Assembly (NCBI RefSeq): GCF_013315695.1 | Contig: NZ_CP054353.1 | Source of the DNA: Escherichia coli | Lineage (GTDB): Bacteria; Pseudomonadota; Gammaproteobacteria; Enterobacterales; Enterobacteriaceae | Strand: one strand, 5' to 3' | Length of the DNA: 64,000 nt | Notes under the pieces: generated by a model | What the model saw: the letters and a program-made list of their open reading frames with translations, nothing else | Databases searched by the model: none | What the model was told of the DNA's origin: nothing | In this document: positions 14,943-20,105 of the stretch, one piece after another | Position numbering within the stretch: position 1 is the stretch's first letter | How the letters are laid out: the number at the start of each line of letters is the position of its first letter | Translations under genes and position numbers: made by a program

Positions 14943-15026
14943 GTAGGCCTGATAAGACGCTATCGGCGTCGCATCAGGCATCCTGCTCAAATGCCGGATG
15001 CGGCGTAAACGCCTTATCCTGCCTAC
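14943..15026. repeat. BIME: two inverted REP palindromic units
   Basis: gtaggcctgataagacgc...gcatcaggc and gccggatgcggcgtaaacgccttatcctgcctac between yiiM and cpxA. Confidence 0.7.
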
Positions 15027-16410: not shown

Positions 16411-17105
16411 GAAGCAGAAACCATCAGATAGCCGCGACCACGCAAGGTTTTAAACCACGGGTGACCATCTTTACGATCCGGCAGTTTACGACGCAGGTTG
16501 GAAATGTGCATATCAATAGCGCGGTCGAAAGGCGTCAGGCGTTTGCCCAGCACTTCCTGGCTTAAATGCTCACGGGAAACCACCTGACCCAGATGCTGTG
16601 CCAGCAAATAGAGCAGGGTAAACTCAGTGCCGGTTAACTCCAGCGTTTGCCCGTCGAAGCTGGCTTCCTGACGGCCTGGATTCAGCACTAAGGCATCAAC
16701 TTCCAGTGTCGGTGAACCGTTGTCGTTGTTTTGCTGTTGCTCGCTCCAGTGCGAACGGCGCAGGATCGCGCGAATACGTGCCACCAGCTCACGATCATTA
16801 AACGGTTTCGGGAGATAGTCATCTGCGCCCAGCTCAAGGCCGAGAACGCGATCAAGTTCACTGCCGCGCGCCGTCAACATAATGACAGGCGTCTGGTGTG
16901 TCTGGCGAAGTGCTTTTAATGTGTCGATACCATTTTTCTTCGGCATCATTACATCAAGCAAAAGTAAATCAATGCTGTCGTCCAGAAGATCAAGCGCCTG
17001 TTCCCCATCGTGGGCAACAATCACGTTGAAGCCTTCCATCTCGAGCAGCTCCTTTAATAGGGAAGTCAGCTCTCGGTCATCATCAACTAACAGGATTTTA
17101 TTCAT
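16407..17105 (-). CDS. cpxR: Response regulator CpxR (OmpR family)
   Basis: 232-aa ORF MNKILLVDDDRELTSLLKELLEMEGF...; overlaps cpxA by 4 nt. Confidence 0.96.
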   Translation of the reverse strand: MNKILLVDDDRELTSLLKELLEMEGFNVIVAHDGEQALDLLDDSIDLLLLDVMMPKKNGIDTLKALRQTHQTPVIMLTARGSELDRVLGLELGADDYLPKPFNDRELVARIRAILRRSHWSEQQQNNDNGSPTLEVDALVLNPGRQEASFDGQTLELTGTEFTLLYLLAQHLGQVVSREHLSQEVLGKRLTPFDRAIDMHISNLRRKLPDRKDGHPWFKTLRGRGYLMVSAS

Positions 17106-17160
17106 TGTTTAAATACCTCCGAGGCAGAAATTACGTCATCAGACGTCGCTAATCCATGAC

Positions 17161-17175
17161 TTTACGTTGTTTTAC
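17161..17175 (-). promoter_or_regulatory. CpxR box (GTAAA-N5-GTAAA) in the cpxR/cpxP divergent region
   Basis: Reverse complement of tttacgttgttttac is gtaaaacaacgtaaa. Confidence 0.65.
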
Positions 17176-17254
17176 ACCCCCTGACGCATGTTTGCAGCCT
17201 GAATCGTAAACTCTCTATCGTTGAATCGCGACAGAAAGATTTTGGGAGCAAATG

Positions 17255-17755
17255 ATGCGCATAGTTACCGCTGCCGTCATGGCCTCAACGCTGGCAGTCA
17301 GTTCATTAAGCCACGCTGCTGAAGTCGGTTCAGGCGATAACTGGCATCCGGGTGAAGAACTTACGCAGCGCAGTACGCAGAGCCATATGTTCGACGGCAT
17401 AAGTTTAACCGAACATCAGCGTCAGCAGATGCGAGATCTTATGCAACAGGCCCGGCACGAACAGCCTCCTGTTAATGTTAGCGAACTGGAGACAATGCAT
17501 CGCCTTGTCACCGCAGAAAATTTTGATGAAAACGCTGTGCGCGCACAGGCAGAAAAAATGGCGAATGAGCAAATTGCTCGTCAGGTTGAGATGGCAAAAG
17601 TCCGCAACCAAATGTATCGCCTGTTAACGCCGGAGCAGCAAGCGGTTTTAAACGAGAAACATCAACAACGAATGGAGCAGTTGCGCGACGTGACGCAATG
17701 GCAAAAAAGTTCATCGTTGAAGCTATTGAGTAGTAGCAACTCACGTTCCCAGTAG
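17255..17755 (+). CDS. cpxP: Periplasmic envelope-stress adaptor CpxP
   Basis: ORF 17252..17755; start at second Met ([21 protein letters not shown], signal peptide) for 166 aa. Confidence 0.93.
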
Positions 17756-17764
17756 TAAACCCTG

Positions 17765-17822
17765 TTTTCCTTGCCATAGACACCATCCCTGTCTTCCCCC
17801 ACATGATGTGGGGGTTTTTTTT
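17765..17822 (+). ncRNA. cpxQ: CpxQ sRNA region (processed cpxP 3' UTR) ending at the cpxP terminator
   Basis: About 58 nt after the cpxP stop, ending in hairpin cccccacatgatgtggggg plus T8; identified by position and remembered sequence, boundaries approximate. Confidence 0.5.
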
Positions 17823-17903
17823 ATCCTCAATTTGCCTGCTGCTTAATGCATTGCAGATGATTTGCTTCCGTTATACTACCGTCAGTTGATAGCGGGAGTA
17901 TTT

Positions 17904-18806
17904 ATGAATCAATCTTATGGACGGCTGGTCAGTCGGGCGGCGATTGCTGCGACGGCGATGGCTTCGCTGCTATTGCTGATTAAAATTTTTGCATGGTGGT
18001 ATACCGGGTCGGTGAGTATTCTCGCCGCGCTGGTGGATTCGCTGGTGGATATCGGCGCGTCGTTGACGAATTTATTGGTGGTGCGATATTCCCTGCAACC
18101 TGCCGACGATAATCACTCGTTTGGTCACGGTAAAGCTGAGTCCCTCGCGGCGCTGGCGCAAAGTATGTTTATCTCCGGTTCGGCACTATTCCTGTTTTTG
18201 ACAGGTATTCAACATCTGGTATCTCCAACGCCGATGACAGATCCAGGCGTCGGGGTTATCGTGACAATTGTGGCGCTAATTTGTACGATTATCCTTGTCT
18301 CGTTTCAGCGTTGGGTGGTGCGCCGGACGCAAAGCCAGGCGGTGCGGGCTGATATGCTACATTACCAGTCTGATGTTATGATGAACGGCGCAATTCTGCT
18401 GGCGCTGGGGTTGTCCTGGTACGGCTGGCATCGCGCCGATGCTCTGTTTGCATTGGGAATCGGCATCTATATTTTATATAGCGCGTTACGCATGGGATAT
18501 GAGGCGGTACAGTCATTACTGGATCGCGCATTACCTGATGAGGAACGGCAAGAAATTATTGATATCGTGACTTCCTGGCCGGGTGTTAGCGGCGCTCACG
18601 ATCTTCGCACGCGGCAGTCAGGGCCGACCCGCTTTATTCAGATTCATTTGGAAATGGAAGACTCTCTGCCTTTGGTTCAGGCACATATGGTGGCGGATCA
18701 GGTAGAGCAGGCTATTTTACGGCGTTTTCCGGGATCGGATGTGATTATCCATCAGGATCCCTGTTCCGTCGTACCCAGGGAGGGTAAACGGTCTATGCTT
18801 TCATAA
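17904..18806 (+). CDS. fieF: Cation-diffusion-facilitator Fe/Zn efflux transporter FieF
   Basis: ORF 17862..18806; start at [25 protein letters not shown] for 300 aa. Confidence 0.92.
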
Positions 18807-20005: not shown

Positions 20006-20105
20006 GCCTGATGCGCTTCGCTTATCAGGCCTACATGAATTCTGCAATTTATTGAATTTGCAAACTTTTGTAGGCCGGATAAGGCGTTCGCGCCGCATCC
20101 GGCAT
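20006..20105. repeat. BIME/REP cluster downstream of pfkA
   Basis: gcctgatgcgcttcgcttatcaggcctac and gtaggccggataaggcgttcgcgccgcatccggcat; the track ORF 19989..20186 lies across it. Confidence 0.7.

Follow-up and report, generated by a model that had tools for sequence, protein, structure and literature searches.

CpxQ of Escherichia coli K-12 and of Salmonella was reportedly described in Chao & Vogel 2016 and Grabowicz et al. 2016. It is an Hfq-dependent small RNA (sRNA) of ~58-60 nt, generated when RNase E cuts the cpxP mRNA near its stop codon (PMC9438474, citing Chao & Vogel 2016; PMC5222698), and Hfq both sharpens the RNase E cleavage and protects the CpxQ product (PMC9438474; PMC5222698). 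In E. coli, a 58-nt CpxQ species processed from longer precursors is visible on Northern blots (PMC6755755). CpxQ is very stable irrespective of its 5' phosphorylation state, with a half-life above 16 min (PMC10250213).

The biogenesis logic of CpxQ is common to SroC, SdhX, and the other RNase E-processed, Hfq-bound sRNAs of mRNA 3' ends: the parental terminator serves as the Hfq module, the cleavage falls near the stop codon, and the product carries a 5' monophosphate (PMC9438474, PMC5222698). These sRNAs differ from CpxQ in their parental genes, seeds, and regulons. Furthermore, the parental mRNA of CpxQ is monocistronic, and the sRNA spans nearly the whole 3' UTR. In Erwinia amylovora, an Hfq-dependent sRNA of ~74 nt with a Rho-independent terminator, Hrs1, is encoded on the strand of cpxP, in the interval that separates this gene from fieF (Zeng & Sundin 2014, PMC4070566).

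Identity and anatomy of cpxQ in the window

The window, i.e., the whole 64-kb stretch of DNA that was analysed, contains the cpxA-cpxR / cpxP-fieF-pfkA locus of E. coli, as read from its list of open reading frames (ORFs; Table 1), and the gene arrangement of the cpxP region is common to 5425 of the 5426 complete E. coli genomes. The cpxP product is assigned to the NCBIfam equivalog NF007687 (CpxP) with 215 bits, against a cutoff of 160. The start of cpxP is identical to that of the MG1655 annotation, while its stop is the TAG at 17753-17755, followed by an in-frame TAA. The region around the 3' end of the gene reads cagTAGTAAaccctgTTTTCCTTGCCATAGACACCATCCCTGTCTTCCCCCACATGATGTGGGGGTTTTTTTTatcc. 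Upstream of cpxP, the exact sequence GTAAA-N5-GTAAA, which is the consensus of the CpxR box, has its single match in the 64-kb window (17161-17175), with 0.05 matches expected by chance. This box would drive the transcription of cpxP, and hence of CpxQ.

Table 1. Features of the cpxP-cpxQ locus, with positions in the window, and the Rfam RF02628 matches in Erwinia loci
Feature	Coordinates	Strand	Basis or remark
cpxR and cpxA		-	ORF list; divergent from cpxP
CpxR recognition box GTAAAACAACGTAAA	17161-17175	-	cpxR-cpxP intergenic region
cpxP CDS, parental mRNA of CpxQ	17255-17755 (ORF 17252/17255-17755)	+	ORF list and NCBIfam
First 9 nt of the 3' UTR, TAAACCCTG	17756-17764	+	Upstream of the RNase E processing site, outside the mature sRNA
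Mature CpxQ sRNA, 58 nt	17765-17822	+	57/58 identical to NC_000913.3 ncRNA cpxQ b4716
5' seed UUUUCCUUGCCAU, single-stranded	17765-17777	+	Predicted unpaired probability ~1.0 (nt 1-13)
Small predicted stem-loop, second conserved pairing region	17778-17794	+	MFE and centroid fold
47-nt attB core of Wphi-type P2-like phages	17779-17825		100% identity to attP core
Rho-independent terminator hairpin CCCCCACATGATGTGGGGG of cpxP/CpxQ	17796-17814	+	Terminator scan
U8 tail TTTTTTTT (T8)	17815-17822	+	Read directly from the sequence; transcript 3' end
fieF	from 17904	+	ORF list; downstream of CpxQ
pfkA		+	ORF list; beyond fieF
RF02628 matches in Erwinia	L025:5697-5771, L071:1068-1142, L078:2468-2542, L057:1383-1454		Antisense to cpxP

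The curated MG1655 record holds the ncRNA cpxQ (b4716, 58 nt) at 4106330-4106387, starting 10 nt after the cpxP stop codon. The pairwise alignment of the window and MG1655 over 121 nt has one differing column: A17806 in the window and C in K-12, the middle base of the terminator loop, is the sole difference within cpxQ. The window shares the position after cpxP, the seeds, the stem-loop, the terminator, and the U-tail with the CpxQ known from Salmonella and from E. coli K-12 (b4716), the K-12 form differing in that one loop base. The identity and position of the cpxQ sequence, as well as its conservation pattern presented below, were thus observed directly in the present analysis. Overall, we give a probability of about 97% to the reading that 17765-17822 on the plus strand is the cpxQ locus, acting by the published CpxQ mechanism.

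Among the 5426 E. coli records, 4104 (~76%) matched a 91-nt query at 99% identity or more, and the K-12 strains fell in the 98.9% identity class, which is the minority. The A17806 allele of the window is the commoner one, carried by roughly three quarters of the complete E. coli genomes.

The initial annotation, which had called CpxQ here, is borne out by the match to b4716 at 57 of 58 positions and by the correct genomic context (cpxP equivalog, divergent cpxRA, fieF downstream, and CpxR box). It had proposed an alignment to the annotated cpxQ, with divergence in the seed or terminator as the result that would speak against the call; the alignment refutes nothing, the lone mismatch being in the terminator loop. 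Likewise, the GC hairpin and U-run that it had placed in the cpxP 3' UTR are found at 17796-17814 and 17815-17822, after the end of cpxP at 17755. Its length of roughly 60 nt after the cpxP stop has to be adjusted, as 67 nt run from the stop to the end of the U-run, and the mature sRNA is the last 58 of these. The call correctly identified a textbook sRNA of the kind encoded in mRNA 3' UTRs.

As for the anatomy of the RNA, the 5' seed is followed by a small stem in which AGACA (17778-17782) pairs with UGUCU (17790-17794), with five base pairs closing a C-rich loop, CCAUCCC; the pair probabilities are 0.84-0.99 in the MFE and centroid fold. The terminator hairpin has eight pairs, six of them G-C, and a 3-nt loop, and is the strongest of the three terminator-like sites in 17000-18100, where shuffled sequences give 1.4. 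The U8 tail that follows is expected to be the binding site for the proximal face of Hfq. The fold energy of the 58-nt RNA is -17.4 kcal/mol (z = -2.74), a value equalled by two of 200 shuffles.

The promoter scan found no sigma-70-like promoter in 17000-18062, thus none inside or just before the sRNA. This agrees with the remark of the initial annotation that the sRNA has no promoter of its own, as none is present between cpxP and the hairpin. It had also held, correctly, that the 5' end cannot be read off the DNA; the position used here was taken from the annotation of K-12 and from published mapping data. The context of the processing site, CCCUG/UUUUCC (slash at the site), is identical to K-12 and has a U at +2, which is typical of RNase E sites (PMC5222698). 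Three ORFs in this region were dismissed: the one starting from the ATG in the terminator loop, since the loop varies between species, and those at 17508-17804 and 17662-17802, which are antisense to a well-supported gene.

Other elements were recorded in the surroundings. The spacer between CpxQ and fieF contains TTGCAG (17851-17856) and TATACT (17872-17877), spaced by 15 nt, and TATACT or TATATT recurs at a similar distance 3' of the CpxQ terminator in the Serratia, Yersinia, Edwardsiella, and Pantoea loci. The TATACT at 17872-17877 may be the -10 element of a fieF promoter. Two REP-type elements on the minus strand are called by Rfam as naRNA4 (CssrE, 77 bits; 14946-15023, downstream of cpxA) and ES036 (CssrF, 48 bits; 20027-20068, downstream of pfkA). 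Two further Rfam matches, both expected in this part of the E. coli chromosome, are the ClpQY (hslVU) promoter element (35157-35214, minus strand, 63.6 bits) and the gammaproteobacterial L31 ribosomal-protein leader (39826-39878, plus strand, 60.1 bits).

Conservation across Enterobacterales and the Rfam family Hrs1

We scanned species-representative genomes with the pattern CCTTGCCA-N6-10-ATCCCTGTCT and obtained at least 120 loci, a sample that is silent on lineages with diverged seeds because the pattern demanded both seed blocks exactly. Fourteen of these matches were rejected as chance occurrences, lying in non-enteric genomes without cpxP and without a terminator. Among the matches listed, at least 106 loci belong to other species across the Enterobacterales, including Escherichia, Citrobacter, Enterobacter, Klebsiella, Kosakonia, Pantoea, Erwinia, Tatumella, Rosenbergiella, Serratia, Yersinia, Rahnella, Hafnia, Edwardsiella, Dickeya, Pectobacterium, Brenneria, Proteus, Providencia, Morganella, Moellerella, Arsenophonus, Photorhabdus, and Xenorhabdus. 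In ~100 of the 106 listed loci, cpxP is directly upstream on the same strand, with a protein identity of 37-98% (tblastn).

When the window and the 106 listed loci were compared, the first 30 nt of the sRNA were identical in 103 of the 107 sequences. The 12 positions left free by the pattern were also conserved, with TTTT in 105/107 and TAGACACC in 103/107. In the same set, the 5' UUUUCCUUGCCA and the C-rich CCAUCCCUGUCU, both identical to K-12, are invariant in 103/107, and the 5' seed (17765-17777) is invariant in 103-105 of 107. In the 40 nt upstream of the sRNA, the mean pairwise identity among the listed loci is 31%, and the terminator itself takes 62 different sequence forms.

The hairpins were compared by folding each sequence and indexing the pairs from the stem base. 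All the 64 distinct full-length variants form a hairpin of 5-9 bp (-9.6 to -17.7 kcal/mol) followed by 6-9 U, and the same stem position takes C-G, G-C, A-U, and U-A among them, i.e., compensatory changes. In the small stem-loop, the five pairs are invariant over the 64 distinct sequences, and covariation neither supports nor refutes this stem. A MAFFT alignment of the 64 homologues, analysed with RNAalifold, was discarded: it did not recover the terminator, with unequal stem lengths being out of register. The overall pattern is the one typical of a seed that acts in trans and is linked to a generic terminator.

A CpxQ family is absent from Rfam, and no Rfam family was called at the CpxQ locus at gathering thresholds. 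With permissive thresholds, no match on the plus strand of the CpxQ locus went beyond weak, terminator-driven ones; NsiR1, RyhB, OmrA-B, and similar matches (E from 0.1 to 10) were set aside as generic resemblance to a hairpin plus U-tail. On the minus strand, the Hrs1 family (RF02628) matches 17750-17822 with 44.5 bits and E = 3.3e-07, below the gathering score of 56.4 and opposite to the strand of the RNA.

RF02628 also matches four Erwinia loci with 51-83 bits, always opposite cpxP and the CpxQ seeds (Table 1). Its consensus begins with AAAAAAA-CCCCGCC, which is a terminator read backwards, and for this reason we consider RF02628 the reverse complement of the RNA. The model thus appears to have been built on the opposite strand. 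As it is antisense even in Erwinia, the failed Hrs1 test reflects the model and not the locus. The position, strand, terminator, and Hfq dependence of Hrs1 (PMC4070566) therefore identify it as the Erwinia orthologue of CpxQ. Coherently, the reverse-complemented Hrs1 consensus contains CCUUGCCA and AUCCCUGUCU, as CpxQ does. Hrs1 had been deemed restricted to Erwinia (PMC4070566), whereas the CpxQ core is found here order-wide among the matches listed. For the annotation of CpxQ, RF02628 is unusable, being strand-flipped and having a threshold that admits Erwinia only.

A phage attachment core overlapping the sRNA

The site of phage Wphi has been known for ~25 years. A limited literature search found no paper linking this site to cpxQ. 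The attB core of the Wphi-type P2-like phages corresponds to the 3' 44 nt of CpxQ (nt 15-58) plus 3 nt downstream, and is identical at 47 of 47 positions to Wphi 253-299. In the phage collection, the core is 100% identical in Wphi, L-413C, fiAA91-ss, R18C, P2_AC1, and many others. In Wphi, it is located between ogr and int, with repeats of the arm-type motif ATGTGGAC on its flanks, and the attP core carries the A allele at the position of 17806. Furthermore, a 45-nt perfect match was found ~100 nt from an integrase gene on a circular record of 32 kb that encodes P2-like phage proteins, although its annotation is that of a plasmid.

The integration site of Wphi and L-413C is given as MG1655 4104392 in an older numbering (Nilsson et al. 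2011, PMC3448106). In the present window, the attachment site is empty. Adding 1977 to 4104392, an offset that we take from the cpxP coordinates in the current and the older numbering, would place the site at ~17804 of the window, inside the CpxQ hairpin.

In other genomes the site is often occupied. The 91-nt query found ~670 more matching places than records. In the lysogen SCU-109, cpxP and a complete CpxQ are immediately followed by a convergent phage integrase gene (attL). From this junction it follows that integration rebuilds CpxQ at attL, with the other end of the prophage keeping a partial copy of it (nt 15-58). A query made of the attL junction was covered at 80% or more in 793 of the 5426 complete E. 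coli genomes (~15%), which indicates a prophage or a remnant. Outside E. coli, 12 of the 106 listed loci have a Wphi-type integrase homologue (51-84% identical) in convergent orientation, 140-285 nt downstream of the sRNA, the species including Rosenbergiella, Photorhabdus, Acerihabitans, and Erwinia.

As the attB of Wphi and L-413C, the same bases serve at the level of DNA, in a role that has nothing to do with the regulation by CpxQ. The natural reading is that these phages would target a sequence already kept constant by the function of the sRNA, as with tRNA and tmRNA genes. The phage copy of nt 15-58 contains both the second, C-rich seed and the terminator that binds Hfq. Transcribed from attR, upstream of fieF, it could produce a truncated CpxQ mimic or an Hfq competitor, altering envelope-stress regulation during infection or lysogeny, an idea that we consider quite improbable. 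Read-through from the phage ogr into the core copy is unlikely, as ogr of Wphi is provided with a hairpin and T-rich terminator of its own (~152-178). Better supported than the mimic is the idea that, throughout the Enterobacterales, the invariant sRNA serves these phages as a landing site.

Targets, alternative readings, and proposed mechanism

CpxQ represses nhaB, skp, agp, ydjN, fimA, and cfa (PMC9438474, Table 1). For cfa, CpxQ C11G and cfa G135C form a compensatory pair, with C11 pairing to G135 (PMC6755755); this published test mutated C11 alone. In our comparison, GGCAAGG of the cfa 5' UTR is complementary to CCUUGCC of CpxQ, and the long cfa 5' UTR of MG1655 (~-176 to -127 from the start codon) holds both GGCAAGG and GGGGACAGG, complementary to the two invariant stretches. 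The duplex between CpxQ and the cfa 5' UTR has an energy of -25.7 kcal/mol (z = -3.8), and none of 500 shuffles was as good. This hints that both CpxQ seeds could engage cfa.

The down-regulation of skp by CpxQ prevents the mistargeting of outer-membrane proteins into the inner membrane (PMC4817254), and nhaB is repressed in E. coli via a site in its coding sequence that pairs with CpxQ U7 (PMC10250213). We found that ACACCAUCCC of CpxQ is complementary to UGGGAUGGU, a stretch that immediately precedes the Shine-Dalgarno sequence of skp, and that the best duplex in the nhaB coding sequence lies at ~+295 to +315. Both sites are at their published positions, and their duplexes agree with the papers but are no better than those of shuffled sRNA (z = -0.24 for skp and ~-1.0 for nhaB).

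Different readings of the locus have to be weighed against these data. It is reasonable that any terminator looks like a strong hairpin plus U8 directly 3' of a gene and, as stated above, Rfam calls no sRNA here at gathering thresholds; the stretch could then be a plain cpxP 3' UTR with an intrinsic terminator, which ends transcription and stabilises the mRNA with no role as a trans-acting RNA. However, this leaves unexplained the 30 invariant nt upstream of the hairpin, in loci where CpxP is 37-60% identical and the hairpin varies freely, and trans regulation is shown by published genetics (PMC6755755, PMC4817254, PMC10250213), which makes the reading extremely unlikely. If CpxQ were instead a primary transcript with its own promoter within the cpxP coding sequence, as MicL and DapZ, it would resemble those sRNAs of mRNA 3' regions that do have internal promoters (general knowledge; PMC5222698), but the scan returned no sigma-70-like promoter anywhere in 17000-18062, and the mature 5' end is a U in a U-run, a poor start nucleotide (PMC10250213). 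Moreover, RNase E cleavage is required, and longer precursors are converted to the 58-nt form (PMC9438474, PMC6755755). We thus regard an unprocessed CpxQ as very unlikely.

The orientation of the RF02628 match (17822 to 17750, E = 3.3e-07) could suggest a functional RNA on the minus strand, yet such an RNA would have an A-run at its start and no U-tail. In the source paper, hrs1 is placed on the strand of cpxP and fieF, with a Rho-independent terminator (PMC4070566, Table 1), and the Rfam match is antisense to cpxP in the four Erwinia loci as well, which points to a model that is itself reverse-complemented; the chances of a minus-strand RNA are negligible. It could also be argued that the conservation is due to the use of the stretch as a phage attachment site and not to an sRNA, given that 17779-17825 is 100% identical to the Wphi-type attP core and that the site is occupied in ~15% of the E. 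coli genomes. Preserving a landing site, however, brings the hosts no gain, the invariant block runs 14 nt past the core on the 5' side (17765-17778), and the hairpin is the most variable part of the core between genera, so that hardly any weight can be given to this explanation.

For the cpxQ reading, the mechanism is the one obtained from published experiments, applied here to a sequence that is identical in every functional part. Under envelope stress, CpxA/CpxR would be activated, and phospho-CpxR on the GTAAA-N5-GTAAA box upstream of cpxP would induce cpxP transcription, which would halt at the hairpin and its U8 tail. Hfq would first guide RNase E and then block it, and the enzyme would cleave the cpxP mRNA 9 nt past the stop codon. 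The RNA freed by this cleavage, stable, 58 nt long, and carrying a 5' monophosphate (U1), would be gripped by Hfq via the U-tail and the terminator. The two invariant, single-stranded stretches, the 5' UUUUCCUUGCCA and the C-rich CCAUCCCUGUCU, would then pair with inner-membrane and envelope mRNAs (nhaB, skp, agp, ydjN, fimA, and cfa), leading to a translation block or to RNase E decay of the targets. We infer that CpxQ is made in the present strain and acts as published. A single transcript would, in this way, yield a protein (CpxP) and an RNA (CpxQ), both serving the Cpx response.

The CpxQ RNA, which helps to safeguard the inner membrane during stress, is already well known, and the locus is an ordinary one. 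Automated annotation misses it: the PGAP-annotated RefSeq E. coli records list cpxP (and fieF) alone under the CpxQ sequence, Rfam has no usable family, and, among the records inspected, cpxQ is annotated solely in the curated K-12 MG1655 record. The strand error in Rfam and the overlap with attB are useful annotations and not discoveries. Thirty invariant nt beside a CpxP that is only ~40% identical make the locus a clean positive control for the conservation-based discovery of sRNAs in 3' UTRs. Furthermore, the end of cpxQ is a heavily used prophage site, which is relevant when cpxQ is engineered or deleted and when breaks in the cpxP-fieF synteny are read.
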